A stretch of DNA of 64,000 nt from Candidatus Parcubacteria bacterium (GCA_026395685.1 JAPLYG010000008.1:15225-79224), one strand, 5' to 3'. Shown: positions 3,125 through 30,651, numbered from the stretch's first letter. Notes: generated by a model not told the origin, from the sequence alone. Program-made: numbers and translations.

Positions 3125-6100
3125 TTATTTTGCCTGTAAAATTATTTTGCCGTTGGATTCACTGGCTGCAAACCCGAGTTCACCAATTTTGCTGCTTCTG
3201 AACAGTTCCACTATTTTTAGAGGCAATTTTTCTTCACTAAAAACTATAGGCATTTCAATATTTTTTTTCAGGGATAAATAATGTAAAATAGTTTCTTCTT
3301 GTTTAGCAGCAGGCACATTATTAAAAAACTTCAAAACTTCCACAATCACCTTGTCTTCTTCATTTTCTTTGCTTAAATAATCAGCCGCCAAAATATAGCC
3401 CAAAACTTCCTTTGCATCCTTGTTTTTTTCCAAAAAGACATTGCTGTGATTGTCGGGAAAATTCAAACCGCCATCCTCATCATCCTCCCCCTTGCCGATT
3501 TTATCCAAAATCGTCTGTGCTTCCTCGATTTCCGCTTTATTCAATTTTTTCAGCAAAGGAGACTCGGAAAAATTATAAATAGCCAGCCCCAGCAGATGCA
3601 GGCCGTCTTTATTTTTAGTATTCTCTGGATCATGAAGCACATAACAGCTCGAGTGTTCAAAGCAATCAGAATATTTCAAGGGCCTCACAGGCTCATATAG
3701 CATATTGGGATTTTCCAGTTCCCCCGTAACCAAACCGCCGTCATCATTATAGCTGGTGCCCAAAATAACCAATTTGTCGGAAAAATGCTTTTTAAAAAAA
3801 TTATTATAGGCTTTGGCAATGGCTGGCCTGTATTTTATGCCCCGGTTGGCAATTTCAATATTATCAACGGCCAAAACAGGGAAATCACGCTTCTTATCTA
3901 AATATTTTTTGTTTGGAATTTCATCCGCCTTAAGCTTGGCTGCAACTAAAACTGACTGGGCAATCATATCTTCCTGACCATATTCATCAACCACGGAAAC
4001 CGTAAAATAAGCAGTATCTTCATGGCTCATGTATTCATAATTAATATCTGTGCCATATCTCATGCAACAGTCTGTGAAATCGCCGGCCACCCAGCCTTTA
4101 GGGTCAGACTTTCTATGAATTTGTACCACCATTTTTTTGCCCTTGATCTCATATTTATTAAGTTTTAAAATATTACGAACACTTTCTTGATCTTCTTTCG
4201 GTATTTCTTCCGCTAAATAATCTGACACTATTTTTTTACCCTGATATTTATCTTTAATAAAGCTTGCCAAATCATTGTATAATTTTTTGGCCTGGCCTGC
4301 TGGTTGCGAGCCATTAATCCCCAAATCAATCAGCTTTAACAGCAGAGCAAAAACCTGCTTATTTTCCGAATCTTTATCTATTGCCAAATCATGCTTTTCT
4401 AAAAATTCATACAGCTTTTTATATTCCTTTTTCTTGAGTAATTTTAAGAAAAAATCCCTAAATGGCGAATCAAAATTCAAATTGAAGCTTTCCTCCTTAA
4501 TATTCTGCAAATTAATAAATTTCCCGCCTTCTTTCAAAATGGCTGATTTATTTAAAGCTACCTTGCGATCATTGCTTAATCTGATTTTTGCTTTTATTTT
4601 CTCCTGTTCGCTGATTGAGCCATCAATTTGAATCGCCTGCAAGCGCGGCTCAAAATCAGCCTTAATTTTTTCTTTACGGTCTTTGTCCTGCCATTCAATT
4701 AAATCAAAAATTGAAAAGTCACCCATAATGCTCGAGATTTTTTCATTTTTGATTAACTGGCCGATTACCGGAATTATTCTTGTTAATTCCTGGCTTGGAA
4801 GCGCATTTTTTACAATTTCATTTAGCGGTGTAATTTCGTATTCTTCCCTTAGCGGCTGAATCAAAGCTTTTTCATCTAAGCCGTCTTGATTTTCCGCCTG
4901 ACGTATGATTAAACCGCTTTTGACATCACGTTCAATCAACCCGATATTAATACCCGGAGCTTTCATCTCTAATATCTTTTCAACAAGTTCCGGCGATAGA
5001 TTATCAGGTAAAATTGAACCCAAGCCGATAAGGTCGATTTGATGCTTGAATTCGGCATAGCTGGCAAAATTATAATTTTCAATATGGTGCAGATTGCGTT
5101 CTTTCCTGGATTGCTGCTGCTTGGTAAAAAGTTCCGGAGAAAACTGATTCATCATTTCATGCAGTTCAAAGGGGTTAGGCGCCTGCTTTATTAAGGTGCT
5201 GAGTATTTCAGGGCTAAAAACATTTTTTTCTTTCAGGGAATCAACGAAAAGAAGTAAATCATGGGTTGAATGGCCCCAATGCTTACTTTTAAATTCAAAA
5301 AACTTTTTAAGGCCGATAATATTTTTCAAATACTCAAAATTTGCTCTTACCTGTCCGGCCCAGACACCTGCTGATAAAATTTTTACTGCCTGTTCATATT
5401 TGGCTTCCGAGGATAAATTTTTGAAAGTTTCCTGCTGATCCTTAATCGCGACAAATTCAGACCCGTTTACACCCAAGTCCTGGGCTAATTTCAGTAAATC
5501 ATCGGTAATTTTTCCAAATGATTCAATATTTTTAGACACAAAGTCAGCTGGCATATCCCAAGAATGCACTCCGTGTTCCAACAATTTAAGTGCAACCTCA
5601 TTATTTAAATGCTTGAATAATTCAAAGTTTTTTACTACCAATGCAATATTTCCATTTTTGATTGATATCAATGCGACTTTATTATGGTCTAAACCCTGAA
5701 ATTTTTCAAAATGAGCTATTATGTACGTTTCATTCATTCGCCGCTCAATAAGCAGATAGGCAATTTCCTGATCCAATGGACCCTGAAATTTGGGTAACAA
5801 TTCCGCAAATGTCCGTAAATTATCATTCTCGATTAACTTGAGAGCAAGGTCATTATCAAAAACCAAGCCCTGGAAGGTTCCCGGCTCTTTAATTGACCAA
5901 TGAGCATTGTGGCTTTCAATTAATTTAATTGCCACATCAGCATCAAGGCCTGTAAAGGACTTATAATAATTATCAACAACCCCGCCTTTTCCCGCTTCAA
6001 TCAATTTAAGAGCTACCTCTTTATCTAAAGAATCTTTAAACCGTGAAATATTATTTTGTAATGTTTCAATTTCTCCCAATTCAATTAATTTAAGGGCAAT

Positions 6101-7196: not shown

Positions 7197-10100
7197 TTAT
7201 TTTTTTATCTTCCTGAGTTCCAAACGATGGAATGTCTCGCCTGCTTCTTTCATTTTGGTATCAACTGCTATTTCATAATTATACTGGCCTGCATATTTCA
7301 TAATAATCGGATAAGATGTTGTTTCCCGGCACCTCATCACAATCGGCATTTTATTTAATTTATCATCATTTTCAATTTTTTTCATTAAACCCCAGGCCAG
7401 TTCCATTCCCACCCCTGTTTTCTGTTTGTCCGGATCTACCGCAATATCATGAAAATATATTTTTGTTTCATCCCTGCCTGGTTCTTTTGCCAAATAACCC
7501 AAAACATAGCCGTCTAAAACGCCAGCGTCAGTAAAATGACCTAGCGTCAGAGCATTTGTTTTTTCCTGTTCAGCTTGGAGATTGGAAGCAGTTAATATTT
7601 TCTGCATTGTCGTTATACCTTCAACTAAGGCGGGATTAGAGCCGTATATTTTTTCTTCCAGATAAGCGACCGGAAAAGTATCGCGCCAGCTGATATCCTG
7701 AATGCCAATTCTTTTAGCGCTGTCTTTTGGGGCACCTTCGGGTAATAATTCCAGACATTTGTCATGCAGATTATCAGAATAGCTGATTAGAGCCTGCGGT
7801 AAAAATTCATTGGGCGGTGTTGTTTTAATATTCTTTAAATAATCCAGATATCCCAGGCCAATAACAACTCTGCTATTTTCCATGCCCAATTGCTTTCGAT
7901 ACTCGTCAAAAAAGGCTTTATAAATAACCGATATAATGCTTTCATCATTTTTAATCAGGCGCTGGACCAGATTATTCTGGCCTTCGACATTATCGCAGGC
8001 AATTACATTTTGGCTGTTATAAAATTTTTCCAAAAAATCAGGTCCTAGTGTTTCTTGCAGATTTACCTCTCCGTGTAATCTTAAATCTGTGACTAATTTT
8101 TCAAATTTTTCTTTGCCTATTCCCTTATCCAGGGTCATAATGCTCTGGACTACGATTCTGGCTTCTTCAGGCGACTGGCCTGGCTGGCGGAAGCTCAAAG
8201 TCATGGCTCCGCATTGCGGGGAAAATAAATATACATTTTGTTTACCCGAGCCAAACGGCATACAGCAGGATGTGTCATCCCCGATTGTGGCATAGCGCGG
8301 ATCGCTGTGCGGCAAAATTTCCGCCCTCATAATTATTTCTTCTCCGCTATATTTCAGGCGGTGATCTTCAATGACTGCTTTCATATCTTCAATTAATATC
8401 TTCTGTTCTTCTGGTATTAAATTCTTAACTTCAAATTTTTCCCGTTTAGACTTAATTTTTTTAGCTAAAAATTCCGCCTTAATATCCTTACTCTCCAAAA
8501 TTTGCCGCCAAACTTTTTTAAGATCGTCTTTATCCTTTATTTGTGTTATTTGTTCCAATAAAGCCTCCGAATTATCGCCGAACTTTTTGCCGCTGACAAG
8601 CCCGGCTGCCCGTTCCTGAGTGTATTTTTTTAATTCCTCAAAATCCAAATTTTCAATTATTTTAAAAACTTCCAGGGACTTATTTAAGTCTGCGCTTAAA
8701 TACTGATTGCTGTCTGCCAAATATACTGTGATAAACTTTTCTAAGTTTCCTTCAATCTGCTTGGCTAAATGATCCAATTCTTTTTCTTTGTCCCTGGCCT
8801 CTTTGTTTTTCAAAATCATTGTATAATCTTTGCTATACGGTTTAAATGGTGACATTGTATCAATCTGCCCCTCAACTAACGCTTTAACAATATCCTCGGG
8901 TCTCAAAGCTATCGTATAATATCCGTCTCCCAATTCAGCCCACTGATTGGGCTCCAGTTCTGACTGCAGCTTCTTATTGGCATGGCTATCAGGCAGCTGT
9001 AAAAATCTCTCGGCATCAGTAAACAACATTAATGCCGGCCCCATACCCACTGTCGGATGGGCTATCAGTTTATTGGCATATTCATAAAGCTTGGGATTAC
9101 TTTCCTGCAAGTTATTTAAGGCTTCCTGCATTCTAGGGGTCATTTTTCTTCTCAGCTCCACTTTTTTTCTGAAAGTCTTTACATTTTTAAACCAGCCTTC
9201 TTTTTCAAATTCTTCCCGCCAGCCGGGCTGGAAATTTTTTACCGCATTAACCAAAAGCTGACGGCTATCCATGCCTTCAATACTTACAGCCGAATCCGAC
9301 GCAGTCTGAAGCAGTATATTTTTAAGTTCTTCCTTATTAGTAACTATTTGAAAAAGGTCGGGCAAAAAATACAAAGCATCATGGCGGTCACTGCCTTTGA
9401 TATATTTCCAGGCATTTTCCGTACCGATTAAAGAGGCAAGCTCTTTAAACCAGGCGCATATTTCCCTGTCCCAAATATACCCCGGATTATTTAAAAGAAA
9501 CTCAGCCACCTTATTGACTCTGTTTTTTTTATTTAGTTTTGAAAGCTCATCATAGTGCTCATTAATTTCCCAAAACTCCTTGTGTTCCAAGCCCAAATCT
9601 TTATAATAATTATATTTTTCTAAATTTAATGAAACTTTCTTTTCCTGGCAAAATTTTACCACCTTGTCAGCGCTGGGCATTTCAGCTAAAAGCGCCTCAA
9701 GAATTAACTGGTAATCTCCTCCTTTTAAACCGGTAAATTTTTCCAAATCATCAGCCACCGCCGGCCCCATACCATTATGAATAAGTGCCAAGGCAATCAT
9801 TCTATGATCCAAATCCACAAATTTATGTAAATTATCAAGAACTGTTGTTTCGAAATTTTTTATTATCAATGCTATGGCCACTTCATTATCCAAACCCTTA
9901 AAATAATCAAACTCGAAACTAAGGACCTCCGGAAGGTTAGCATTTATAAAAGCCAAAGCAACATCCTTATCCATTCCCTCAAATTTCGTTAAATTGTCTG
10001 CAACAGCCTTGCCTTGACCATTGGCAATAAGTCTAATAGCCATTGCCTTGTTATTCAGGCCGGGAAATCTATCTATTAGAGTGGCTACTGTATACCCTTC

Positions 10101-11639: not shown

Positions 11640-13154
11640 ATGACTGGCAAAAATTCCAACATCTTAATCACAGCTTTTCTAAAGGTTTTTAACCAAAACC
11701 CTGATTTTAAATTTGTTGATAAATTACTTAAAAAATTTCCAACAGCTGAAATATATCTGGTCGGCGGCAAAGTGCGCGATATTTTACTGCAAAGAGATTC
11801 TTATGATTATGATTTTGTTATCCGCAAAATCAAAGCCAAAGACCTGGAAACATTTTTAGCCCAAGAAGGCTCAGTCAATTTTGTCGGCAAGTCTTTTGGC
11901 GTATTTAAATTTGTTCCCAAAAAATATGACAGCCAAGAACCGATCGATATTGCTCTGCCCCGCACTGAACAGTCATTCATGACCGGCGGATATAAAGACT
12001 TTGATGTCCAGACTGATCCGGAACTGCCCTTGGAAAAAGATCTTGCGCGCCGTGACTTTACCATCAATGCCATGGCAGTAAATATTGCTACCGGAGAAAT
12101 AATTGATCCTTTTGACGGACAAACTGATTTACAGAATAAGCTAATCAGAACAGTAGGCCAGCCAGATGAAAGATTTCAGGAAGATTATACCCGCATGATC
12201 CGCGCCATTCGCTTTTCCACTCAACTATTTTTTAAAATTGACCAGCCGACTTATCTGGCTATTCAAAAACTGGCAGCCAAGATTAAAACCATGGCTACTG
12301 AGAGGCTGACTGAAGAATTTACTAAAATTATTATTTCTCCCAATGCCGAGTATGGGGTTCAAATTTTACAGAAATCAAATTTGCTGAAATATTATCTGCC
12401 TGAGCTGGAACAAGGCGTGGACGTCTCCCAAAACAAACACCACATTTACAGCGTTTTCACCCATAATGTTAAAGCACTCGGCTTTGCCGCTCAAAGAAAT
12501 TATAATCTTAATGTGCGCCTGGCAGCTTTATTTCATGACATTGCCAAACCCCAGGTCAAAGCCGGTGAGGGGCCGGATTCCACTTTTTACAACCATGACA
12601 TTGTCGGCGCCAAAATTACCCGCAAAATTTTACAGCGTTTGAAATATTCCAATGACATCGTTGATAAGGTTTCACATTTGGTAAGACACCACATGTTTTT
12701 CTACAGTTTAGGCGATATCACTGACGCTGCTGTCCGCCGCTTATTGGCGCGCGTGGGCAAAGATAATATCGGTGAAATAATCCAGGTCAGAATCTGCGAT
12801 CGTTTAGGCATGGGCCGTCCCAAAGCCAAGCCATTTAAGCTGATTGATCTGGAAAAACGTTTGCACGAAGTCCAGCTTGATCCGATTTCTGTTAAAATGT
12901 TGAAAATTGACGGCTCGGAATTAATGAAGATATTGGATATCAAACCCGGCCCTAAAATCGGTCTGCTTTTAAATGCGCTTTTAGCCGAAGTACTGGAAGA
13001 TCCCAAAAAAAACAAAAAAGCTTACTTACAAAAACGACTTAAAGAATTAAATAAGCTTTCTGACGACAAACTTAAAAATCTGGCGCCCCAGCTGGATAAA
13101 TATGAAGAGGAACGGAAGAAAGAATACTTTTCCCATGTTAAATGGGTGGAATAG
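11640..13154 (+). CDS. cca: CCA-adding tRNA nucleotidyltransferase (HD domain)
   Basis: YLVGGKVRDILL head-domain motif, HD domain LAALFHDIAKP; 504 aa. Confidence 0.85.
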   Translation: MTGKNSNILITAFLKVFNQNPDFKFVDKLLKKFPTAEIYLVGGKVRDILLQRDSYDYDFVIRKIKAKDLETFLAQEGSVNFVGKSFGVFKFVPKKYDSQEPIDIALPRTEQSFMTGGYKDFDVQTDPELPLEKDLARRDFTINAMAVNIATGEIIDPFDGQTDLQNKLIRTVGQPDERFQEDYTRMIRAIRFSTQLFFKIDQPTYLAIQKLAAKIKTMATERLTEEFTKIIISPNAEYGVQILQKSNLLKYYLPELEQGVDVSQNKHHIYSVFTHNVKALGFAAQRNYNLNVRLAALFHDIAKPQVKAGEGPDSTFYNHDIVGAKITRKILQRLKYSNDIVDKVSHLVRHHMFFYSLGDITDAAVRRLLARVGKDNIGEIIQVRICDRLGMGRPKAKPFKLIDLEKRLHEVQLDPISVKMLKIDGSELMKILDIKPGPKIGLLLNALLAEVLEDPKKNKKAYLQKRLKELNKLSDDKLKNLAPQLDKYEEERKKEYFSHVKWVE

Positions 13155-13250
13155 GGCGAAAACGCCTGCCTCAATGTCACCCTGAGGCTCTCGAAGGGTG
13201 GCGCTCATGGTTCGAGAACCTCACCATGACAACAAAGGGCGTTTTCGCCC
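13154..13250. repeat. 97-bp element bounded by perfect 14-nt inverted repeat GGGCGAAAACGCC/GGCGTTTTCGCCC with internal hairpins
   Basis: Seen directly; second family member at 22070-22156. Confidence 0.6.
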
Positions 13251-13297
13251 AAACTAAACTTCGGCCTTCGGACTTCATCCTTCGGCCTTAAAACCCT

Positions 13298-14218
13298 ATG
13301 ATTATAAAAATTAAACCCGAACAAGTTGACCAGCGTCTTGATAAATTTCTAACCAACAACCTGCCTATCACTCGCAGCCAAATCCAGAAACTGATCAAGG
13401 CGGGAAAAATTTTAGTCAATGGCGAACAATCTTCTGTCCATCGTTTTTTAAAAGGAAACGAAGTGATTAAAGTTGTCGCCAAAGATATTGATAAAATTAC
13501 TGAAATAAAAGAACTAAAGCCCAATAAAAGCGTGAAGTTTAAAATTATTTACGAAGATGATAATATATTAGTGATAGACAAACCGGCCGGTCTTTTGGCC
13601 CACCCCACAGAACAAATGGAGCCCAAAACCTTAGCCAGCGGCTTGCTTGCCAGATATCCGCAGATTAAAAATGTCGGAGAAAATAAACTGCGTCCCGGCA
13701 TTGTCCATCGTTTGGATAAAAATGTTTCCGGCCTGATTATAGTCTGCAAGACACAGGAGGCGTTTCATTATTTTAAAAAACAATTCCAAAAAAGAAAAGT
13801 CAAAAAAATTTATACAGCCTTAGTTCATGGTAAAATGGAAAAAAACGAAGGTACTATTGATTTACCGATTGCCCGTTCAAGCAGCAAAGGCAAAATGGCT
13901 GTAAAATCTCAGGCTCAAGGCGGGAAAAATGCCATTACGAAATATTGGCTCAATAAGCAATTCAATAATTTTGCCTTACTGGACATAGAAATTCTAACCG
14001 GCCGCACCCATCAGATCCGCGCTCATTTAAATGCGATCCAGCATCCGATTGTCGGCGACAAACTTTATACGCAGAAATGGGTAAAGGAAAAGCTGGAAAT
14101 TGATCGTCCGTTTTTGCATTCCAGCTATTTAAGCTTCAAAAATTTGGACGGAAAAACGCTGGAATTTAAATCAAAACTCCCTGCAAAACTAATTAAAATC
14201 CTGGAAAATCTAACATAA
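13298..14218 (+). CDS. rluD: RluA-family 23S rRNA pseudouridine synthase (RluD/RluC-like) with S4 domain
   Basis: HRLDKNVSGLIIV catalytic motif, N-terminal S4-like region. Confidence 0.85.
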   Translation: MIIKIKPEQVDQRLDKFLTNNLPITRSQIQKLIKAGKILVNGEQSSVHRFLKGNEVIKVVAKDIDKITEIKELKPNKSVKFKIIYEDDNILVIDKPAGLLAHPTEQMEPKTLASGLLARYPQIKNVGENKLRPGIVHRLDKNVSGLIIVCKTQEAFHYFKKQFQKRKVKKIYTALVHGKMEKNEGTIDLPIARSSSKGKMAVKSQAQGGKNAITKYWLNKQFNNFALLDIEILTGRTHQIRAHLNAIQHPIVGDKLYTQKWVKEKLEIDRPFLHSSYLSFKNLDGKTLEFKSKLPAKLIKILENLT

Positions 14219-14224
14219 GCATTC

Positions 14225-14370
14225 CCGAGAAATAACCAATCAACAATAATCTGCCTGCAGGCAGGTCAATCATCAAACAATTTCAAAAATCTAATATCAA
14301 AATTGGAAATTAGGATTTAGGTAATTAGATATTGTTTGAATATTGATGTTTGATTATTGATAATTATTAA
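14225..14370. repeat. AT-rich dispersed intergenic repeat (TGATTATTGAT/CAATCAACAATAATC motifs) with central CCTGCCTGCAGGCAGG palindrome
   Basis: Related copies at 16030-16140 and 22495-22620. Confidence 0.4.
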
Positions 14371-14411
14371 ATATTTCAGCCTTCATACTTTAGTCTTTAT
14401 ACTTTAGACTT

Positions 14412-14987
14412 ATGTATCAAATTATAACCATCTCAGGCACACCTGGCTCTGGCAAATCAACTATTGCCCAAAAACTCGCAGAAAAACTTAATGCCGAGCG
14501 CATTTATGTCGGCGCTATCCGACGCGAATTAGCCAGAGAAAAAGGTATTACTCTGGAACAGCTCAATGAATATGGGCTGACCCATCCGGAAACAGATGTA
14601 GATATTGACCAAAAAATTGCAATTGAGGCGCGTGAAGCCGCTAAAAAAGGCATAGTAATAGTTGAAGGCAGAGTCCAATTCCATTTTATTCCTGAATCAT
14701 TCAAGATCTTCATTCATGTTGCCGTGGAAGAAGGCGCCCGCCGTATTTGGAAGCAAATGCAGAATGAAGCTGACAAAAAAATGCGCAATGAAGGTGAAGT
14801 TAAAGACATCAATGCTTTGACCGAGGATATTAAAAAAAGGATAGCTAATGATAAAAAGCGCTATAAAAAATACTATAATCTGGACCATACCGACGGATCT
14901 CATTATAACCTTGTCATTGATACCACTAAAATAACCGCTGAGGCGGCAACCGCTAAAATCCTCAAAGCCCTGCCCAAACTTGACTAA
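14412..14987 (+). CDS. cmk: archaeal-type cytidylate (CMP) kinase
   Basis: ITISGTPGSGKSTIAQKLAEKL P-loop; KKRYKKYYNLD and overall 191-aa layout match Cytidylate_kin2 family. Confidence 0.7.
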   Translation: MYQIITISGTPGSGKSTIAQKLAEKLNAERIYVGAIRRELAREKGITLEQLNEYGLTHPETDVDIDQKIAIEAREAAKKGIVIVEGRVQFHFIPESFKIFIHVAVEEGARRIWKQMQNEADKKMRNEGEVKDINALTEDIKKRIANDKKRYKKYYNLDHTDGSHYNLVIDTTKITAEAATAKILKALPKLD

Positions 14988-15102
14988 TTTGACAGTTTGA
15001 GGTAATATTAGCTTACATAAATCCTTCCGGATTTCTTTTTAATTAAAGGGCTAAAACGCCCTAATTTCTTAATTCATACTTCTAACTTCATACTTCAATC
15101 AT

Positions 15103-15462
15103 ATGGCAACTTCAAAAGTAGCAGACAAACAACTCATTGATAAAACTCAAGTTAAACCGGGCATGGTTGTTCGTGTTTTCGTAAAAATTAAAGATGTAAA
15201 TGCCAAAGGCGAAGAAAAAGAAAGAATTCAGGCATATGAAGGCTTGGTCATTGCCAAGAAACACGGCAATGAACAAGGCGCAACAATTACTGTGCGCAAA
15301 ATCAGCGAGGGCATTGGTGTTGAAAGAATCTTCCCCATCCATTCACCCCTCATTGAAAAAATAGAGCTGGTTGACCAAAAAGTAATTCGCCGCGCAAAAC
15401 TTTATTACACGCGCACTTACAAAAAGAGACTTAAATCAATTTCTGAAAAAAAGCATAAATAA
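15103..15462 (+). CDS. rplS: 50S ribosomal protein L19
   Basis: IQAYEGLVIAKKHG..ATITVRKISEGIGVERIFPIHSPLIEKIELV is canonical L19. Confidence 0.9.
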   Translation: MATSKVADKQLIDKTQVKPGMVVRVFVKIKDVNAKGEEKERIQAYEGLVIAKKHGNEQGATITVRKISEGIGVERIFPIHSPLIEKIELVDQKVIRRAKLYYTRTYKKRLKSISEKKHK

Positions 15463-15466
15463 AAAA

Positions 15467-15503
15467 AGACGCCGTCCGGATCCACCGAACGGCGTTTTTT
15501 TGT
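15467..15503 (+). terminator. rho-independent terminator after rplS
   Basis: GACGCCGT..ACGGCGT stem followed by T7 run. Confidence 0.7.
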
Positions 15504-15541
15504 TTAAAAGACGAAGCAGGTGCTTCGCCTTGTTAGACTTA

Positions 15542-15730
15542 CTACCCGAAAACCGGGCAGGCCAGTTCCCTGCAGCTTTCACAGCAGTTCGGACCCTTGG
15601 GCGCACAATGGCGTTCAAAATACCCGGGCTGTCGCAAACTTTCCAGTTCGCGCTCAATCGCCCCTGGATCAAAATCTTCCACGTCACCGTTAGTGCATAA
15701 AATCAGATTATCATCTTTTGCTATGGGCAT
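15542..15730 (-). CDS. small Cys-rich hypothetical protein (62 aa), SD-led
   Basis: AAGGAGG 5 nt before ATG; 6 Cys; GC-elevated segment. Confidence 0.5.
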   Translation of the reverse strand: MPIAKDDNLILCTNGDVEDFDPGAIERELESLRQPGYFERHCAPKGPNCCESCRELACPVFG

Positions 15731-15977
15731 AATTTCCTCCTTTGTCTAAATGTTTTTCTGCGACCATGCGCCTAAGATCGTGATCCTTTGGTGTAAGCTT
15801 AGAATCGGGAATTATCCGCGGATTGTCGCATTGCGATTTATAATCAGGACCTTGAACCATGACTGTTTTGGGACCAATGACTTCAACCACTACTCCGCGG
15901 CGAGTCATGCTCGGATCTGCCACAAAAACCGCTTCCACAAAATCTCCCACTTTCACTACCGCTTTTTCGCTCAGCAT
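15711..15977 (-). CDS. small hypothetical protein (89 aa from second ATG), SD-led; overlaps downstream gene by 20 nt
   Basis: AAGGAGG then ATGCTGATG; start placed at the second ATG for SD spacing; ORF track's longer N-extension starts upstream of the SD (15984-15990) and is unlikely; VGDFVEAVFV...RRGVVVEV beta-barrel-like (KOW/Tudor-like) pattern is a guess. Confidence 0.45.
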   Translation of the reverse strand: MLSEKAVVKVGDFVEAVFVADPSMTRRGVVVEVIGPKTVMVQGPDYKSQCDNPRIIPDSKLTPKDHDLRRMVAEKHLDKGGNYAHSKR

Positions 15978-16146
15978 CAGCATCCTCCTTTGTGGCGATC
16001 TTAGATGAGACAATAACCTCTGTACTATAAACAATCACCAAACATCAATAATCAATTTTCAAACAAATCCTAAATCCAAATATTAAATAACCAATATTTT
16101 TAAACAATTGTTTGATGATTGATTATTGTTTATTGATTATTAACCA

Positions 16147-19023
16147 CTATATCATCTTCTTCAAAAACTGTCCTGTATAACTATTTTTTACTTTAATAAT
16201 ATCCTTCGGAGTGCCCTGAGCAACTATATATCCTCCCTTATCGCCGCCTTCCGGCCCCATATCAATCACCCAGTCAGCGGATTTAATAACATCCAGATTA
16301 TGTTCAATCACTAATATTGTATTACCCTTATCTACTAATTTTTGCAAAACGCCTAACAGCCGGTTGATATCGTCAAAATGCAAGCCGGTTGTCGGTTCAT
16401 CAAGAATATATAAAGTCTTGCCTGTGGCACGGCGTGATAGTTCAGTCGCCAGTTTAACCCTTTGCGCTTCGCCGCCTGACAAGGTCGTAGCGGGCTGTCC
16501 TAATTTAACATAACCCAAACCGACATCGCAGAGAATCATTAATTTATCATGAATAATTGGGATATCTGAAAAAAATCTTTTTGCTTCTTCTACGGGCATA
16601 TCCAAAACTTCGGCAATATTTTTGCCTTTATAATAAATCTCCAGCGCATCTTTAAGATAACGGCTGCCGTGGCATTCTTCACATTCAATATAAACATCAG
16701 GTAAAAACTGCATTTCAATGCGCACCAAGCCTTCACCGGCACAAGCTTCACAGCGACCGCCCACAACATTAAAGCTGAATTTCCCCGCATCAAACCCGCG
16801 CATTTTAGCTTCTGGAATTTGAGTATATAAATCGCGGATATAAGTAAAAACTCCGGTATAAGTTGCGGGATTAGAACGCGGTGTACGTCCAATCGGCGAT
16901 TGATCAACAGTAACAACTTTATCCAAATTGTCCAAACCGACAATTTCCTTATGTTCTGCAGGCTGCTCTTTAGCGCGGAAAAAATGTTTGGCCAAAGCAC
17001 GTGATAAAATATCGATAATCAAAGTGGACTTGCCTGAGCCTGACACGCCGGAAACAGCCACAAACTTGCCCAAAGGAATTTTGCCCTCTACATTCTTCAG
17101 ATTGTTTGCGGTCGCGCCTTTAATGGTAATAAATTTATTATTACCCTTGCGATAAACTTTGCGCGGTTCAATCTTATATTTCCCCGATAAATATAAACCT
17201 GTTAAAGATTCTTTATTCTTCTTAATTTTATCCATTGTGCCGATGTCAACCAATTGCCCGCCGTATTCACCGGCGCCGGGACCAATATCAACAATTAAAT
17301 CAGCTTCTTTCATAATCGCCTCATCATGCTCAACCACAATCACGGTATTGCCCATATCGCGCAACTTTTTCAAAGCATCAATCAGGCGCTTGTTGTCTCT
17401 TTGGTGCAAACCGATTGAAGGCTCATCTAAAACATAAATAATTTCCGTTAAAGACGAGGAAATCTGTTTTGCCAGACGTATTCTCTGCGCTTCGCCGCCG
17501 GCCAAGGTAGTCGCGCTCCTGTCCAAAGTCAAATAATCCAAAGAAACAGCATTTAAATACTCCAAACGTCGTTTAACTTCCTTGATTAACTGCTGAGCGA
17601 TTTTATATTCATTTTCTGTTAAGTTTAATTTCCCCTTATTGGCTTCCGTGCGATACAAACCAGCCTTAGAATTTTTTTCCACCAGATCAAAAAAATCATA
17701 AAGAGTCTGCAAATCCATATTAACCAATTCTGAAATATTCTTATCTAAAACTGTAACCGCCAGGCTTTCGGGTTTTAATCTTTTGCCCTGACAAGTGGGA
17801 CAAATTATTTCTCTCATATAATCCTCGATTTCTTTTTGCACATATTCCGAGTCTGTTTCCCTATATTTCTTTTCTAAATATGGAATAATGCCTTCAAATT
17901 CATGTTTTTTGCCTTCTATCTCAAATTCTTCTTCGCCCGTGCCATATAGGATAATATCAAGTTCTTCTTTTTTAATTTTTTCTACTGGCTTGTCCAGCGG
18001 CACTTTATAATTTCTAGCGACTGTCTGCAGTAATTTATTCATAATCGGCTGATTAGCAGTCAAGCGCGTCCAAACCTTAATCGCTCCTTGTTCAATTGTC
18101 AGACGAGGATTAAAAACCACCAAAAGCGGATCGATTTCCAAACGCACTCCCAAGCCGGTACATTTAGGACAAGCGCCGACCGGAGAATTAAATGAAAAGC
18201 TTCGCAATTCAATTTCCGGCAAATTAATATTGCACTTAGGACAATGCAAATGCTGGGAATAAGTCTGTTCCTGATTATTATCACGCCTTAAAATCGTGAC
18301 CATGCCATTAGCCAGATCCAAAGCTTTATCAACTGCCTGATAAAGCGCTGTTTTATGAATTTTTTCCAATGATGTCTTTTCTACAAAAACATAATCAATC
18401 AGCACATCCATATTATGTTCCGCCTCTTCATCAATCATCATTTTTTCCAGTTCATGCATGCTGAAAATTTTTCCATCTAAGCGCAATTGATAAAACTCAG
18501 CTTTTTTCATTTTTTTTATAACATGATCAAGCTTGCCCTTTTTGCCGATTATTATAGGCGCCAAAACAGCAACCCGAGTTTGAGGCGGCAATTCAAAGAC
18601 TCTTTCCACTATTTGTTGCGCAGTCAATTTTTTAATCGGCTGTCCGCACTTAGGACAGTGAACTATTCCGATTCTGGTAAATAAAAGACGGAGATAATCA
18701 TAAATCTCCGTAATAGTTCCAACGGTTGAACGCGGATTATTGGATGTAGTTTTTTGATCAATGGCAATAACCGGAGAAAGCCCTTCGATCTGATCAACAT
18801 CAGGCTTATCCATTACGCCGATAAACTGGCGGGCGTAGGAAGATAAACTTTCCACGTATTGCCTCTGCCCCTCGGCAAAAATCGTATCAAAGGCCAAAGA
18901 AGATTTGCCTGAGCCGGATAAACCGGTAATGACAATAAACTTATTCTTGGGAATTTCCACATTGATATTTTTCAGATTGTGGACGCGCGCGCCTCTGATA
19001 ATGATTTTGTCTTGTTTGGGCAT
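16147..19023 (-). CDS. uvrA: excinuclease ABC subunit A
   Basis: 958 aa; two ABC ATPase modules ([25 protein letters not shown]), zinc-finger cysteines, LSGGEAQRI signature. Confidence 0.95.
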
Positions 19024-19304
19024 AAAAAAATAGTTTAGAGTTCAAAATTTAAAATGCAAAATTACAATGTGTAGTTTAAAATTTATGTAGATTATTAAAA
19101 TATATATTCCAAAATTTTTAATTATTAACTGTCCCGAAGGGATCCCTTTGGGATAACTTTGCACTTTACACTTTGAACTTTTAATTCAATAAGCACCGAT
19201 TACAAACATTCTATCATGCCTGTCAAGACTGGTCAAGAGGGTAAGGGTAGAACGTGCAAAATAATCAAAAAACGCCCTGTTTTCATAAGGCGTTATCTTC
19301 TCCG

Positions 19305-19357
19305 GCTCTTACACTTTTTTATCCGCCATAGCTTTAGCGGAGGCGGAAGTGTAAGAG
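19305..19357. repeat. GC-rich hairpin element (TCCGCC-ATAGCTTTAGCGGA-GGCGGA core inside longer stem) in hairpin-dense intergenic region
   Basis: Member of the GAAGCTTTAGC-loop hairpin family (see 17-41, 2341-2366, 35399-35426). Confidence 0.5.
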
Positions 19358-19427
19358 CTTCGTACCTGAACACTAAAGTGTTCAGGCCTTTATTTTTCTT
19401 GGCCTTTTGCCTATTGGCTAATGGCAA

Positions 19428-20327
19428 TTACTTCAAATTATATTTGGCAATATTGTCATTGCAAATTTTCTGTAAAATTTTTATCTGTTCCGCTCCTTTC
19501 GGATCCTTGAACAAATGCTTAAACCTGGCGTGATACTTTAAATATTCATCAACCTTAGGAGCATCCTGAGGCACTTTCATGGAACTTACCAATTCCCCGT
19601 TGACAAATTCCACTACCGGGAAAAATCCTGTCTTTTGCGCCAATTTGCCTAGTTCAATCGCCTGATTATCCTCAATTCCCCAGCCTGGCACGCACGGCGT
19701 TAAAATATGGATAAACTTTGGGCCGGGTGTGTCCCAGGCTTTTTTTACTTTGCGTTTAATATCTTCAATATATCCTGAAGTAGTAGTTGCCACATAACCT
19801 ACTCGGTGCGCTAAAGCAATCTCCAACATATTTTTTTTAAACATTCTATTACCTAAAGATTTTTTACCTGGCCAGGTTGTGCGCGTAAAAGCGTCAAGAG
19901 GCGTAGCGCCTGAAGCCTGGTAGCCGGTATTGGAATAAACTTCGGTATCATAACAAACATATAAAATATTGTCCCCGCGCTCCCACATGCCGGAAATCAA
20001 ACCAAACCCAATATCAAAGGTGGAACCGTCACCGCCTTGCGCCAGGACTTTAACTTTTCCGTCCAGGCCTTTATGTTTTATAGCTGCTAAAATACCGGAG
20101 GCGACTGCTGAAGGATTTTCAAACAAAGAATGAATCCAGGGAACTTTCCAGCTTGAAGTCGGATGCTTTGATGTTGTCACTTCTAAACAACCCGTGGCAT
20201 TGGCAATAATTGTATCGGGACCGCAGGCGTCAATCACATGACGCGCAGCAATCAGCTGGCCGCAGCCCGGACAAGCAGTGTGGCCGGGATTGAGTAAGTG
20301 TTCGAATGGGTTAGTATATTTTGGCAT
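19428..20327 (-). CDS. porB: pyruvate:ferredoxin (2-oxoacid) oxidoreductase beta subunit (TPP-binding)
   Basis: CPGCGQLIAARHVI, GGDGSTFDIGF TPP motifs. Confidence 0.85.
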   Translation of the reverse strand: MPKYTNPFEHLLNPGHTACPGCGQLIAARHVIDACGPDTIIANATGCLEVTTSKHPTSSWKVPWIHSLFENPSAVASGILAAIKHKGLDGKVKVLAQGGDGSTFDIGFGLISGMWERGDNILYVCYDTEVYSNTGYQASGATPLDAFTRTTWPGKKSLGNRMFKKNMLEIALAHRVGYVATTTSGYIEDIKRKVKKAWDTPGPKFIHILTPCVPGWGIEDNQAIELGKLAQKTGFFPVVEFVNGELVSSMKVPQDAPKVDEYLKYHARFKHLFKDPKGAEQIKILQKICNDNIAKYNLK

Positions 20328-20491
20328 ATTATATATTTATACCCTGCTTTAGCAGGCAAACAATCTTTTAATGACTAATTTTTAAGTATTAATTTTTATT
20401 GAATTTTTAATGACTTTATTTCTAATTTTATTCATTATCATATTAAATCATTATTTAAAAATTATAAATTAAAAATTAATAATTAGACATA

Positions 20492-21649
20492 CTATCTTCC
20501 AACAAATCCTATTTTCCCAGTCTTAACCTTGGCCAAGTCAACAATGTCACTTATCATCTTTTCCGTAATATCACGTCCTCCCAAACCAACGACAAAGGAA
20601 CTTATCTGTGCTTTCAATTGCCCATAGCAGGCGCGCTTAATTTCAGTCGCTAAAATACCCTCAGTACCGATGGAAATGGCTTTATCTACTACGGCAACAT
20701 ATTTAACTTTGCTCAAAGCCTTAACAATCTCAACATCAGGAAACGGTCGGAAAGAAATTATTTTTAATAAACCAACTTTTTTTCCCTTGGTTCGTAATTG
20801 ATCAATCACCTCTTTAATTGTCCCGCAAACAGAACCCATGGCCACTAAAATGATATCAGCGTCTTTGGTTTTGTATTCTTCAATCAAGCCATTACCGATG
20901 CCACGGCCAAAAACTTTTTTAAATTCTGAATTTTGCCTGACAATTTCTTTTTTGGCAGCCGCAACATCTTCAAATAGCTCCTGACGGATTTCCAGATAAC
21001 GTTCTGGCGTAGCAAAAGTTCCCAGAGAACGTGAATTAGCAGTATCAAGGGTTGAATCTTTAGGAGCAAGGTAATCGGGCAGGAATTTCTTAATCAAACT
21101 TACTTCAGGGATTTCCACTGATTCAAAGGTATGAGTCAGCACAAAGCCATCCATATTGACCATAACCGGCAACATTAAACTCTCGGCCAGTTTATACGCT
21201 AAGATATGCAAGTCAACTGCCTCCTGATTTGTTTCTGCGTAAAGTTGCAGCCAGCCTGCATCACGGATGGTAACTGAATCCTGCTGATCATTCCAGATAT
21301 TTATCGGCGAAGAAATTGCGCGATTGGCACAGGTAACCACCACCGGCAAACGCATGCCGGCAATATTAAATAAAACTTCAGTCATTAAAAGAAGTCCTTG
21401 TGAAGAAGTTGCCGTATAAGTCCTGACACCGGTAGCGCTCGCGCCCAAAACCATGGAAGCAGCGCTAAATTCCGATTCCGCATTGATAAATTCAAAATCA
21501 GCCTCGCCATTATCTTTCATCTTGGCCAAGTCCTCCACAATATGCGTCTGAGGTGTGATCGGATAAGCCGCCACAACCGCCGGCCGCAAATTTTTCATAA
21601 TTTCCGCGACCGCATGGGATCCTTCGACGATTTGTTTTTTAGTATTCAT
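20492..21649 (-). CDS. porA: pyruvate:ferredoxin oxidoreductase alpha subunit
   Basis: 385 aa, typical PorA layout, operon context with porG/porD/porB. Confidence 0.85.
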   Translation of the reverse strand: MNTKKQIVEGSHAVAEIMKNLRPAVVAAYPITPQTHIVEDLAKMKDNGEADFEFINAESEFSAASMVLGASATGVRTYTATSSQGLLLMTEVLFNIAGMRLPVVVTCANRAISSPINIWNDQQDSVTIRDAGWLQLYAETNQEAVDLHILAYKLAESLMLPVMVNMDGFVLTHTFESVEIPEVSLIKKFLPDYLAPKDSTLDTANSRSLGTFATPERYLEIRQELFEDVAAAKKEIVRQNSEFKKVFGRGIGNGLIEEYKTKDADIILVAMGSVCGTIKEVIDQLRTKGKKVGLLKIISFRPFPDVEIVKALSKVKYVAVVDKAISIGTEGILATEIKRACYGQLKAQISSFVVGLGGRDITEKMISDIVDLAKVKTGKIGFVGR

Positions 21650-21779
21650 AATATTTTAAGTATGAAGTCCGAAGTACGAAGCTCGAAATTTAACTTCAGC
21701 CTTCATTAAAGCTTGACTTTTTTAAAAAATAGTAGTATATTTAAATGTTCCAAAAACTTAAGAGAAAGGAGCTTCCAAA

Positions 21780-21998
21780 ATGCCAAATGAACATGGTCAG
21801 GTTACCGTAGGCGACTTCAAAGCCCCTCCGGGTCAGTATCGAATCACTCGCGAAGACATGGAAGATGGCGCCCTGTACATCATCGCTGACATTTTCAACT
21901 ATGAGTGCGCGATTATAATTACCAACTGGCTGCGAGAGGAAGACGAAAACTCTGTCTTTTTGCTCTGGGATGATAAGGGCCAGGAAATTATCTGCTAA
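21780..21998 (+). CDS. small hypothetical protein (72 aa), SD-led, GC-elevated
   Basis: AAAGGAG ~11 nt upstream of ATG; sits between porA and porD on opposite strand. Confidence 0.4.
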   Translation: MPNEHGQVTVGDFKAPPGQYRITREDMEDGALYIIADIFNYECAIIITNWLREEDENSVFLLWDDKGQEIIC

Positions 21999-22069
21999 AA
22001 GAACCGTCATCAATTGACTTGCTCAGCGAAACAAAAGTAGCTGGGCTTTTTTATTTCTCGGGCGAAAAC

Positions 22070-22156
22070 GCCCGTTTTATTGCACCGATACGTAGAGACG
22101 CATTGCTATGCGTCTCTACCGTCCATCATCAAGGGCGTTTTCGCCCTTCAACCAGC
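22070..22156. repeat. 87-bp element bounded by GGGCGAAAACGCCC/GGGCGTTTTCGCCC inverted repeat with internal GTAGAGACGCA..TGCGTCTCTAC hairpin
   Basis: Same terminal IR as 13154-13250. Confidence 0.6.
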
Positions 22157-22200
22157 AACCTCATACAACATAATAAAACTTCTTATAACCTTATAAAACC

Positions 22201-22488
22201 TTATTTATAATCATTAATCATACTTATCGCGCTCACCGGGCATTCCTTAGCGCATAAACCACAACCTTTGCAATAATCCAAATCATTATCGTAAAAAATT
22301 CTGCCTTTGGAATTTTTCTCGCTGGTTGCAAAACAAACACCTTCAGGACAAACTTTATTGCAGGTGTCACAGCCAATACAGACCTCGTGATCAACCACAG
22401 GCTTAAAGGTTCGCCAGGTGCCAGTGTTATACTCTGTCGTTGTGCCGGGCTTGGCGTTTAATATGTTTTTCAATATTTTATTGGACAT
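22201..22488 (-). CDS. porD: pyruvate:ferredoxin oxidoreductase delta subunit (2x[4Fe-4S] ferredoxin)
   Basis: CIGCDTCNKVCPEG and CKGCGLCAKECP cluster motifs. Confidence 0.85.
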   Translation of the reverse strand: MSNKILKNILNAKPGTTTEYNTGTWRTFKPVVDHEVCIGCDTCNKVCPEGVCFATSEKNSKGRIFYDNDLDYCKGCGLCAKECPVSAISMINDYK

Positions 22489-22614
22489 AGCTTTTTAATC
22501 ATCAAACATCAATAACCAATCATCAAACAAATTCAAATCAACGAAATTCTAAATTGTTTGGTTATTATTGATTAAGCATTAGATATTGTTTGATTATTGA
22601 TGATTGATTATTGG

Positions 22615-23163
22615 TTATTTTACGTAGTCATATGCCGCTACCAGCGCCTTAATATTCTTCTCAATTATCTCCTTATCATACTTCTCCCCCAAGTGTTCGC
22701 TAATCGCATTTTTCGCCGCTTCTAGCTCAATCAATCCTGAAATTCTGGCAAAAGCTCCCAAAATTGCAGTATTGATAATCGGCTTGCCAATTATCTCTAA
22801 AGCTATTTTTAATACCGGTACGCAATAAATTTTTCCGCCGTAGCCTGGACAAACCTGATCAGGCAATTTATCTGAGTTAATAATGACAATAGTACTTTTT
22901 TTGGCGCCGTTTAAAACATTGGCAATCGCAACTAAGCTGGGATCAAGCACTATGATATAATCAGGCTCATAAACCTGCTCCCGGCTGCGGATAAACTTGT
23001 CATTAATCTTTACAAAGGCAGTAACCGGTGAACCTTTTCTTTCCACGCCGAAAACCGGAAAAGCCTGCACCTGCTTACCATTATAAAATGCTGCCATGGC
23101 AATCAGCTCAGCCAAAGTCACATTGCCCTGCCCGCCTCTACCATGAATACGAATTTCTATCAT
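22615..23163 (-). CDS. porG: pyruvate:ferredoxin oxidoreductase gamma subunit
   Basis: IRIHGRGGQGNVTLAELIAMAAF N-terminal motif of POR gamma. Confidence 0.85.
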   Translation of the reverse strand: MIEIRIHGRGGQGNVTLAELIAMAAFYNGKQVQAFPVFGVERKGSPVTAFVKINDKFIRSREQVYEPDYIIVLDPSLVAIANVLNGAKKSTIVIINSDKLPDQVCPGYGGKIYCVPVLKIALEIIGKPIINTAILGAFARISGLIELEAAKNAISEHLGEKYDKEIIEKNIKALVAAYDYVK

Positions 23164-26282: not shown

Positions 26283-28001
26283 ATGGTATTTAAAAAACCA
26301 CACATTCCCCATCGCGAGGGAAATTATTCAAAAGAACCCAAATTACGCATCATGGTTTTGGGCGGGCTGGAAGAAGTCGGCCGCAACATGACTGTTTTAG
26401 AATTTGGCAATGACATTATTATTGTTGACATGGGCCTGATGTTTCCCGAAGAAGACATGCCGGGCATTGATTATATTATTCCCAATATCTCCTACTTTAA
26501 AGGTAAGGAAAAAAATATTCGCGGCGTAATTATTACTCATAGCCACATGGATCATATCGGCGGCATTCCTCACATAATGCCCAAAATCGGCAATCCCATT
26601 ATTTATACCGCCAAATTATCAGCCGGTATTATTCAAAAAAGGCAGGAGGAATATAAGTCAGCTCCAAAACTCAAATTTTACATCATTGATGAAAACACCC
26701 ATTTGAAACTGGGAAATTTCAATGTAGAATTTTTCCGAGTTAATCATAATGTGCCTGACAGCTTTGGCGTTGTGATCAAAACTCCGATCGGAACTATTGT
26801 GCATACCGGAGATTTTAAAATTGATCATTCCCCTATTAATGACAAGCCTGCTGACCTGGGCCGCATTGCTCAAATCGGCTCCCAGGGAGTCTTGGCTTTA
26901 ATGGCTGATTCCACTGATGCCGAACATGAAGGCTATCAGATTTCTGAAGCCAGAGTCGGCGAAGAATTGGAAGGTATTTTTGAAAAAGCGACCAACCGCA
27001 TTATTATCGGCACGTTTGCTTCACTCTTAAATCGCGTTCAGCAAGTTATTACTATCGCTGAAAAATTCGGACGCAAAGTTATGATTGAAGGCCGCAGCAT
27101 GACAACCAATGTAGAAATTGCCCATCAGCTCGGCTATATGAAAATCAAGCCAGGCACTTTATTGGAAGCAGAACATTATAATGAAAAAAAATATCCTGAT
27201 GATAAAATTGTGATTATCGGCTCCGGCGCTCAAGGTGAACAAAATGCCTTTTTAGTACGCTTTGCAGAAGATGAACATCGTTTTTTGCATATTAAAGAGG
27301 GCGATACTGTTATTTTTAGTTCCTCGGTTATTCCCGGCAATGAACGCACGATTCAAAATTTAAAGGATACTTTTTATCGCAAAGGCGCCAGAGTTATCCA
27401 TTACAAACTTATGGATGTTCATGCCGGCGGACACGCCAAAAAAGAAGATTTAAAACTATTGATCCGTTTAATCAAGCCTAAATATTATTTTCCGATCGAA
27501 GCCAACCATTATATGCTGCGCTTAAATGGCGAAATTGCGGAAAGTTTGGGAATACCCAAGGATCATATTTTTATTGCTGAAAATGGACAAGTAGTAGAAT
27601 TTACCCACAATGCCGGACACTTAACCCCGGAAAAAGTCCCGACCGATTATGTAATGGTGGACGGACTGGGAGTCGGCGATGTATCAGATATTGTTTTGCG
27701 TGATCGTCGGGTCATGGCTGCTGACGGCATGATTGTAATTATTGCCACCATTGATCGTAAAACCGGAAATATAATCGGCAATCCTGATATTATTTCCCGC
27801 GGTTTTGTTTATATGAAAGAAAATAAAGAATTGATTGAAACGACCAGAATGAAAGCCAAAAAAATATGCGGAGACACCGATCCTAAATCACCGGCTTTCG
27901 ATGATTATATTAAAAATAAAATCCGCGATGATATTGGCCAGTATCTCTATATTAAAACCAAACGACGACCCATGATTTTACCCGTAGTAATTAAAGTCTA
28001 A
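26283..28001 (+). CDS. rnj: ribonuclease J (metallo-beta-lactamase/beta-CASP)
   Basis: ITHSHMDHIGGIP, beta-CASP motifs, 572 aa. Confidence 0.9.
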   Translation: MVFKKPHIPHREGNYSKEPKLRIMVLGGLEEVGRNMTVLEFGNDIIIVDMGLMFPEEDMPGIDYIIPNISYFKGKEKNIRGVIITHSHMDHIGGIPHIMPKIGNPIIYTAKLSAGIIQKRQEEYKSAPKLKFYIIDENTHLKLGNFNVEFFRVNHNVPDSFGVVIKTPIGTIVHTGDFKIDHSPINDKPADLGRIAQIGSQGVLALMADSTDAEHEGYQISEARVGEELEGIFEKATNRIIIGTFASLLNRVQQVITIAEKFGRKVMIEGRSMTTNVEIAHQLGYMKIKPGTLLEAEHYNEKKYPDDKIVIIGSGAQGEQNAFLVRFAEDEHRFLHIKEGDTVIFSSSVIPGNERTIQNLKDTFYRKGARVIHYKLMDVHAGGHAKKEDLKLLIRLIKPKYYFPIEANHYMLRLNGEIAESLGIPKDHIFIAENGQVVEFTHNAGHLTPEKVPTDYVMVDGLGVGDVSDIVLRDRRVMAADGMIVIIATIDRKTGNIIGNPDIISRGFVYMKENKELIETTRMKAKKICGDTDPKSPAFDDYIKNKIRDDIGQYLYIKTKRRPMILPVVIKV

Positions 28002-30641: not shown

Positions 30642-30651
30642 TTTCAATTTA

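Follow-up and report, generated by a model that had tools for sequence, protein, structure and literature searches.

Palindromic elements with a constant frame and exchangeable interiors in a clade of Patescibacteria, probably REPIN/BIME-like mosaic DNA

Two short palindromic elements, each bounded by a pair of inverted arms of 14 nucleotides (nt), are present in intergenic spacers of a 64,000-nt stretch of DNA from Candidatus Parcubacteria bacterium (GCA_026395685.1 JAPLYG010000008.1:15225-79224), hereafter the window, numbered from its first letter. Copy 1 follows cca, the gene of the CCA-adding enzyme, and copy 2 is located between porA and porD. An earlier sequence-only reading of the window had noticed both, and had considered elements resembling miniature inverted-repeat transposable elements (MITEs), structured small RNAs and protein-binding sites as explanations. 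The features are as follows; a strand is given for genes, while the elements, their arms and their modules carry none.

11640-13154, plus strand: cca, upstream of copy 1
13154-13250: copy 1, entire, 97 nt, frame with a D-type interior, recognised from its arms, its fold and the matches of its interior elsewhere
13154-13167: left arm of copy 1, GGGCGAAAACGCCT
13176-13230: D-type twin-hairpin module of copy 1, GTCACCCTGAGGCTCTCGAAGGGTG..CATGGTTCGAGAACCTCACCATGAC
13237-13250: right arm of copy 1, GGGCGTTTTCGCCC
13298-14218, plus strand: RluD-like pseudouridine synthase gene, downstream of copy 1
15048-15102: single arm GGGCTAAAACGCCC (15048-15061) and an array of 7-nt period (15062-15102), upstream of rplS
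20492-21649, minus strand: porA
21780-21998, plus strand: open reading frame (ORF) of 72 amino acids (aa) with a ribosome-binding site, read from the sequence, converging on copy 2
22060-22146: copy 2, entire, 87 nt, frame with an A-type interior
22060-22073: left arm of copy 2, GGGCGAAAACGCCC
22092-22119: A-type module of copy 2, a 12-bp hairpin GTAGAGACGCAT-TGCT-ATGCGTCTCTAC
22133-22146: right arm of copy 2, GGGCGTTTTCGCCC
22201-22488, minus strand: porD (ferredoxin subunit), its 3' end toward copy 2
48076-48135: degenerate single arm GGACAAAAACGCCC (48076-48089) and an array like that beside copy 2

The arms of both copies read GGGCGAAAACGCC(C)/GGGCGTTTTCGCCC. Those of copy 2 pair perfectly (14/14), and those of copy 1 form 13 perfect pairs and one G-T pair (13167/13237). 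The sequence-only reading had described perfect 14-nt arms for both, which holds for copy 2 and is one pair too generous for copy 1; it had located copy 1 correctly and copy 2 with a 10-nt offset (22070-22156 in place of 22060-22146). The internal hairpins that it had pointed out were all found, CACCCT..AGGGTG at 13178-13200, CATGGT..ACCATG at 13206-13228 and GTAGAGACGCAT..ATGCGTCTCTAC at 22092-22119. It was also right about the genes around the two copies, although the 72-aa ORF between copy 2 and porA had been overlooked, as had the slightly degenerate single arms at 15048-15061 and 48076-48089. The cca stop codon TAG overlaps copy 1 by one base, its G being the first of the element. A hairpin followed by T6 (22021-22052) comes after the 72-aa ORF; with this ORF and its hairpin standing between it and porA, copy 2 has convergent genes on its two sides. 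The exact 13-mer of the arms occurred four times in the window, forming the two inverted pairs. When up to two mismatches were allowed, seven matches were observed against 1.41 expected, a number reached by none of 100 shuffles. Folding of both strands of both copies gave hairpins with energies of -48 to -56 kcal/mol and with z-scores of -6.4 to -8.9, and none of 200 shuffles was equally stable. The two inner hairpins of copy 1 have mutually complementary loops, which explains why its minimum-energy fold is a single long hairpin. Both copies are a real, non-random feature.

The paired-arm pattern GGCGAAAACGCC-N50-80-GGCGTTTTCGCC was searched in one-genome-per-species contigs and in metagenome contigs, where it matched 18 and 54 loci, respectively (loci and comparison contigs bear L numbers below). 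About 55 distinct elements were located on contigs with a GC content of 32-46%, from low-GC members of the Candidate Phyla Radiation (CPR). The source records of the carriers were labelled Uhrbacteria, Falkowbacteria, Parcubacteria or Patescibacteria, and two were labelled "Gammaproteobacteria". The GenBank titles of L005, L006, L012 and L015 (CAZPVP01, CAYNWH01) read "uncultured Gammaproteobacteria"; these loci possess a cca gene 71-79% identical to that of the window, the same gene order and a low GC content. The "Gammaproteobacteria" labels look wrong, since the cca genes, the gene order and the low GC all fit the CPR window. On the CPR contigs, the cca protein was up to 91% identical to that of the window and the por proteins 71-88%, and the organism of the window is a relative of these CPR bacteria. 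Matches on high-GC contigs (L011, L013, L025, L033, L035, L043, L044, L057, L059, L062, L070 and L071) were set aside as probably unrelated on account of their GC content and dissimilar interiors, several of them being long palindromes which merely contained the 12-mer. Viral contigs, searched with two spacer ranges, gave no match and hence no sign of phage carriage. The family is confined to a clade of CPR/Patescibacteria.

Absence of further copies, which the sequence-only reading had named as fatal to its interpretation, is thus not what was found, as more than 50 further copies exist. Its remark that conserved termini combined with a variable interior were notable proved to the point: this combination defines the family, as it does REPINs, the doublets of repetitive extragenic palindromic (REP) sequences (PMC3337134). 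The density of copies was low, with two full elements and two single arms in the 64 kb of the window and three to four exact copies per 300-860 kb of contig. The elements are solitary and not tandem, which rules out an array of clustered regularly interspaced short palindromic repeats (CRISPR) or one of tandem interspaced guide RNAs (TIGR), and their density is far too low for a DNA uptake sequence. Literature searches by sequence strings, peptide strings and keywords returned no description of these elements, and the literature on REPINs and on REP-associated tyrosine transposases (RAYTs) found by keyword contained no mention of Patescibacteria. The family is previously undescribed, and no report of repeats of the type of REPs, REPINs or bacterial interspersed mosaic elements (BIMEs) was found for this phylum.

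Each arm is a 5-bp mini-palindrome with a loop of four A or four T (GGGCG-AAAA-CGCCC or GGGCG-TTTT-CGCCC), and the two arms of an element are inverted. The A-loop arm comes first on either strand; among bystander pairs in the fetched flanks, which had escaped selection by the search pattern, all 11 of 11 showed this A-then-T order. In most copies the outer stem ends sharply at 13-14 bp, and 20 bp are reached only in one subfamily (type C). In the frame variant GGGCGAAAACGGCTG...CAGCCGTTTTCGCCC, the pairing between the arms is kept by compensatory changes while the mini-palindrome is broken. As only arm-arm pairing is kept in this variant, the invariant core of the frame is reduced to GGGCGAAAAC/GTTTTCGCCC. 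The minimal element, at 7594-7637 of L007, contains nothing but a 16-nt loop between its arms. T was enriched at the first inner positions of the elements.

Four types of interior modules, A-D, were distinguished. Type A, as in copy 2, is a 12-bp hairpin GTAG...CTAC with GTAG at the 5' end of either strand, in the manner of REPs; the copy 2 hairpin recurs in near-identical form in L007, where it is framed, and in L029, where it is not. Type B is a pair of hairpins whose loops, CTTTAG and CTAAAG, are invariant; their stems, of which at least 10 different ones were observed, are always perfectly paired. Types C and D are twin hairpins built on GTCAYYCTGAG..., copy 1 being of type D (GTCACCCTGAG.../...CTCACCATGAC). 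In an alignment of 10 D sequences the two local stems were 99% paired and the loop-loop helix 97% paired, with three covarying pairs, a result obtained in none of 500 shuffles; across the D helices pairing amounted to 96-99%, and compensatory changes were present. Unframed examples of types A, C and D were found as well. Related insertions were seen inside a gene: queA of the window (1471-2607) contains in-frame palindromic insertions at two hot spots, 1764-1876 and approximately 2330-2400. The second hot spot is occupied by GCCCGCCGAAGCTTTAGCGGAGGCGGGC in the window, by a complete D-type twin hairpin of 63 nt in L075 (9179-9241, in-frame and translated as VTLRLSKGGRNNVMVREPHHD) and by a single GTCATCCTGAGCATAGTCGAAGG hairpin in L073 (approximately 9220-9250), and nothing is present there in L074.

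The type B modules are connected with transposase genes. Locus L007 encodes, at approximately 1780-2319 and 242 nt from its framed element, a 179-aa protein which was first met through weak matches of approximate IS200/IS608 TnpA queries and then confirmed with Pfam (Y1_Tnp match) and with NCBIfam. It passes the model NF047646, REP-associated tyrosine transposase, with 89.3 bits for a cut-off of 80. This RAYT gene and its homologues in L078-L082 have a conserved gene order, after a TP_methylase gene, and inverted ACAGACTTTAGTCTGT / ACACACTAAAGTGTGT hairpins on their flanks; such inverted CTTTAG/CTAAAG hairpins bracket the RAYT gene in five loci. The B1 interiors (L002, L009, L016, L067 and L072) correspond to both RAYT flanks joined together, the outer 10-13 nt included, and in L079 the same doublet of RAYT flanks is found unframed. 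Another RAYT, a more distant one, was located 893 nt away from the L014 framed element and has another REP on its flanks. Altogether, a RAYT was present within 1 kb in 2 of approximately 57 frame-selected loci. The Y-x3-NPV motif is invariant in the L007 RAYT clade. We also observed that H-Y-Q replaces H-U-H in this clade and is conserved in five homologues, and that the L014 RAYT has a canonical HFH. A loose regular-expression search for genes flanked by single D or C hairpins was uninformative.

Comparison contigs were fetched through cca homologues, independently of the repeat, and the gene order of the window was kept in them; in the relatives L073 and L074, cca was 79-84% identical, with the same order of genes. 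The cca-rluD spacer had no frame in four relatives: it measured 4 nt in L074, was occupied by nothing but a lone hairpin in L073, and in L076 and L077 contained small genes that are unrelated. The cmk-rplS spacer was empty in L073, contained the single arm and its array in the window, and a full C-type element with an array in L075, where the element is inserted between a predicted promoter with a conserved leader hairpin and the essential rplS gene. In L073/L074 all three spacers, cca-rluD, cmk-rplS and porD-porA, are devoid of the elements, and in L073 porD is separated from porA by 13 nt. The PorA proteins of L061, where the element is present, and of the empty L073 are 81.6% identical and represent the closest pair outside the near-identical L023/L065 strains, which indicates that presence of the element is polymorphic within clades.

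The interior of copy 1 was found again with 92% identity in L010 and 89% in L063/L064, between unrelated flanks. More than 30 pairs of elements had interiors 85-99% identical at unrelated flanks, several of them inside one genome, and the arm-to-arm unit is therefore a dispersed repeat. At porD-porA, a framed element was present in six lineages (the window, L008=L023, L058=L065, L053, L061 and L017), whose interiors represent all four types, B in two kinds. L023 and L065/L058 share flanks of 98% identity over 4.5-8 kb, yet the interior of one is the reverse complement of the other, at 97% identity. The genes separating the porD-porA element from porA vary by lineage, different small genes taking the place of the 72-aa ORF of the window. 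These data show insertion, dispersal, exchange of interiors and a flip, and the identity of module B with the RAYT flanks.

No flanking direct repeat (target-site duplication) was found in approximately 55 copies, nor was there any clear conserved target motif, the flanks showing only a compositional skew. Arm pairs more than 124 nt apart, which would mark a longer element with the same ends, were absent from 650 kb of carrier DNA. These results bear on the possibility of a classical MITE, derived by deletion from an insertion sequence of the DDE type, whose 14-bp terminal inverted repeats would be bound in double-stranded DNA by the transposase of that element, with movement by cut-and-paste. 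Terminal inverted repeats, a size of 80-125 bp, the lack of coding capacity, intergenic positions, presence or absence at orthologous sites and subfamilies with common termini all agree with such an origin. The missing duplication or target and the lack of a longer element in those 650 kb do not, and moreover the arms are self-palindromic and the interiors are REP-like modules tied to Y1 transposases rather than remnants of a transposase gene. We consider a classical MITE unlikely. The MITE-like option of the sequence-only reading is thereby retained in a broad sense, that of non-coding, dispersed, insertion-polymorphic inverted repeats, and disfavoured in the strict sense of a transposon derivative.

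According to rough gene calls, essentially all framed elements are intergenic, mostly between co-oriented genes, with approximately 6 of 40 between divergent genes, and many begin 0-8 nt past a stop codon. This position, together with the T enrichment at the first inner positions, the very stable folds and the placement of copy 2 between convergent genes, could be expected of a host RNA signal, in which the GC hairpins and T-rich tails of the arms would act as bidirectional terminator, as a hairpin protecting the 3' end or as an RNase III site, the interior being filler. A consensus scan indeed flagged arm and tail as terminator-like in copy 1 (minus strand), in copy 2 (plus strand) and at the single arm at 15047. 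The sense strand was however the more stable one in only 12 of 28 elements (P=0.55), so that the transcribed strand is not favoured, and the copies between divergent genes, those internal to operons and the full element standing between the promoter/leader hairpin and rplS in L075 fit this explanation poorly. Close relatives do without the element at the same sites, the hairpin of the whole element is not followed by a U run, and near-identical interiors at unrelated sites are not what filler would produce. We therefore judge a host RNA signal to be rather unlikely as the origin of the elements, although a role as terminator or stabiliser could exist as a secondary effect. No Rfam family matched at gathering thresholds in the whole window, and the E-value mode applied to both sites returned only sub-threshold chance matches of microRNA/small nucleolar RNA type. 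With no Rfam family and no bias toward the transcribed strand, the structured small RNA proposed by the sequence-only reading finds no support. The strand-symmetric features and the lack of a stability gain on the sense strand point to a constraint on the DNA hairpin and not to an RNA gene.

Most elements, and both single arms of the window, are accompanied on one flank by an array of 35-60 nt made of units of 7-10 nt. The arrays are G-poor on the strand read away from the element, their unit sequence is specific to the locus, and their orientation is fixed relative to the element and not to the genes. They are absent from empty orthologous sites. The following arrays were located in the window.

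13251-13297: 7-nt periodic G-poor array AAACTTC GGCCTTC GGACTTC ATCCTTC GGCCTTA, between copy 1 and the start codon of the rluD-like gene
22147-22200: approximately 10-nt periodic G-poor array AACCTCATAC AACATAATAA AACTTCTTAT AACCTTATAA, between copy 2 and the porD stop codon
15062-15102, 48090-48135 and 19154-19190: other arrays

Two further features are flanked by similar arrays, a palindrome located at 19132-19153 and likewise in L074, and the PDDEXK_3 gene of L076. The palindrome, TCCCGAAGGGATCCCTTTGGGA, forms two mini-hairpins with complementary GAA/TTT loops, in a design like that of the GGGCG arms, and recurs in the relative L074 at a different site, the cmk-rplS spacer. In L076, an 88%-identical relative, the PDDEXK_3 gene (GxxExxY-type, nuclease-like) is inserted at the cca-rluD site and bracketed by inverted arrays of TACGAAA-type repeats at 2891-2938 and 3287-3383. 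Extra small genes accompany the framed elements at porD-porA and beside the L007 RAYT.

The differing small accessory genes at these two places, absent from empty relatives, may suggest a site-specific recombination site, either an invertible switch or an attC-like site of folded single strand which would exchange modules or small genes. The interior inverted between 98%-identical strains and the different interiors at one site would agree with this, and the association of a conserved stem with a variable terminal structure is reminiscent of attC. Against such a site, the attC R-box consensus is not matched and the stem has no extrahelical bases, neither an integrase or invertase nor cassette arrays were found nearby, and no gene has been added at the copy 1 and rplS sites. 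A flip changes little, given the near symmetry of what is conserved in the interior, and one inversion can come from recombination or template switching between any inverted repeats. We hold this explanation to be very improbable. In another reading, to which we give a small chance, the GGGCG frame and the array together would be a dedicated docking hairpin and not one more selfish repeat: a single-strand recombination site at which modules and small accessory genes are exchanged at fixed positions; it would account for the four interiors, the one flip and the four different sets of neighbouring genes at porD-porA. If true, it would represent an attC-like cassette-exchange system of CPR bacteria or of their mobile DNA, served by some recombinase.

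We propose that the elements are probably REPIN/BIME-like mosaic selfish DNA acting as single-stranded DNA hairpins. Two 14-bp arms, GGGCGAAAACGCCC and GGGCGTTTTCGCCC, form the frame and pair with each other over 14 bp, as in a REP doublet, and the spacer between the arms is filled by one of several stand-alone hairpin modules. In this model, the elements would spread and be reshuffled as single-stranded DNA hairpins by a RAYT/IS200-type (Y1) enzyme provided in trans, in combination with nested insertion and with recombination or template switching between the common arms. All conserved features read alike on both strands, and either strand could thus serve as a substrate. Effects on the host, such as stable hairpins in intergenic transcripts, weak termination or protection of messenger RNA 3' ends, would be a by-product or a later co-option. 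Both the enzyme that would act on the GGGCG arms and the actual mode of movement are inferred.

Several observations weigh against the REPIN/BIME-like model. No RAYT gene was found in the 64-kb window, and no gene flanked by single GGGCGAAAACGCCC arms was found, the RAYTs that were identified having REPs of other types on their flanks. The copy number is low, approximately 2 per 64 kb, and REPIN populations usually comprise tens to hundreds of copies. In the GGCTG variant the mini-hairpin of the arm is broken, and the arm need not act there as a REP-type hairpin. Single arms were rare beside arm-to-arm units, but most loci had been chosen for their paired arms, and the number of pairs relative to single arms is biased accordingly. 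The movement of the elements is deduced from comparisons and not from an observed excision or insertion junction. Finally, the arrays and the variable small neighbour genes are outside the reach of this model.

Other palindromic sequences are present in the same region. Inserts of approximately 110-125 nt with AT-rich inverted repeats were seen at 22497-22619 (porG-porD), 20366-20490 (porA-porB) and 16033-16141 (beside uvrA). The porG-porD and porD-porA spacers of the relative L073 have only 6 and 13 nt, respectively, so that in the window some palindromic insert has settled in each spacer of the por operon. The stretch 63818-63855 is a perfect palindrome of 38 nt, CATCCGAAGAAGCGATTTGCAAATCGCTTCTTCGGATG. 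A small hairpin with a T run, AAATCC(N4)GGATTTCTTTTT, occupies 15016-15040, between an upstream promoter-like site (14980-15008) and rplS downstream, and is conserved in the cmk-rplS spacers of L073 and L075; it may be the leader or attenuator of L19, or the terminator of cmk. The block from approximately 28000 to 36000 has a GC content of 47-50%, compared to 36-41% elsewhere in the window, and contains long ORFs overlapping on both strands. Three of the four ORFs tested had no Pfam match and one showed Big_7/Ig-like domains only, and the block may be acquired DNA or a large surface-protein region. A scan for transfer RNA and transfer-messenger RNA genes revealed no connection with the elements, and exact-protein look-ups of the RluD-like and PorD proteins of the window returned no record.

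Repeats are expected to be rare in the tiny, streamlined genomes of CPR/Patescibacteria, and REPIN-RAYT systems have been studied almost only in proteobacteria. The present family shows that such genomes hold palindromic DNA in layers, from the frame and the nested REP-like modules to RAYT genes and to insertions that lie in-frame in housekeeping genes, and that this DNA reshapes operon spacers. The combination of a fixed frame and an exchangeable interior lends itself naturally to studies of the targeting, replacement and flipping of hairpin DNA. On the practical side, the elements make spurious ORFs and break assemblies, and pipelines for the annotation of CPR genomes should recognise them.

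Among known systems, integron attC sites resemble the elements by their conserved paired ends, by a variable terminal structure (57-141 nt) and by a function proposed for the folded single strand. They differ in that the arms GCGAAAAC...GTTTTCGC fail RYYYAAC/GTTRRRY at the YYY and RRR positions, the 14-bp stem is perfect and without bulges, cassette arrays and intI are missing, and the surroundings are housekeeping genes. Rickettsia palindromic elements are found in-frame in genes, whose products gain short peptide segments. The same holds for the D and C hairpin modules inside queA of the relatives, whereas the framed elements are all intergenic, and there is no sequence relationship. Correia elements of Neisseria, which have their origin in a DDE-type system and give rise to duplications of a TA target, and ERIC/IRU of Enterobacteria, of which the ERIC interiors are conserved, have a comparable size (approximately 100-150 bp), terminal inverted repeats, size variants due to internal insertions and deletions, and locations in operon spacers which are polymorphic between relatives. 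The elements described here show no target duplication, unlike Correia elements, and exchange their interior wholesale, unlike ERIC.

In BIMEs of E. coli and the SMAG/GTAG repeats of Stenotrophomonas, small palindromic units of alternating orientation are assembled with defined linker motifs into mosaics. The mosaic of small palindromes, the A module bearing GTAG and the location in transcribed intergenic spacers are common to them and to the present family, which shares no sequence similarity with them and has a fixed outer frame in place of their tandem clusters. The elements most resemble the REP/REPIN selfish DNA of proteobacteria, that is, REPINs with their RAYTs, the "REPtrons" of Pseudomonas and Enterobacteria. 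The host here, however, is a CPR bacterium with a genome of approximately 1 Mb and few copies; none of the RAYTs found has the GGGCG arm on its flanks, the arm hairpin is lost in one frame variant, and the L007 RAYT clade has H-Y-Q for H-U-H. In addition, the spacers are not unique sequences but discrete common modules, one of which is itself the REP doublet of another RAYT, i.e., a case of nesting. REPINs have been described as inverted REPs with a variable but hairpin-forming spacer, a preferred AA-TT/TT-AA configuration and an association with RAYTs (PMC3337134). The elements have likewise inverted, short palindromic end units and form a long hairpin with a variable, hairpin-forming spacer, for a length of approximately 90 nt. 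They prefer one configuration of asymmetric loops, are intergenic and show no target duplication, and related genomes hold RAYT genes flanked by inverted REP hairpins in a conserved gene order.

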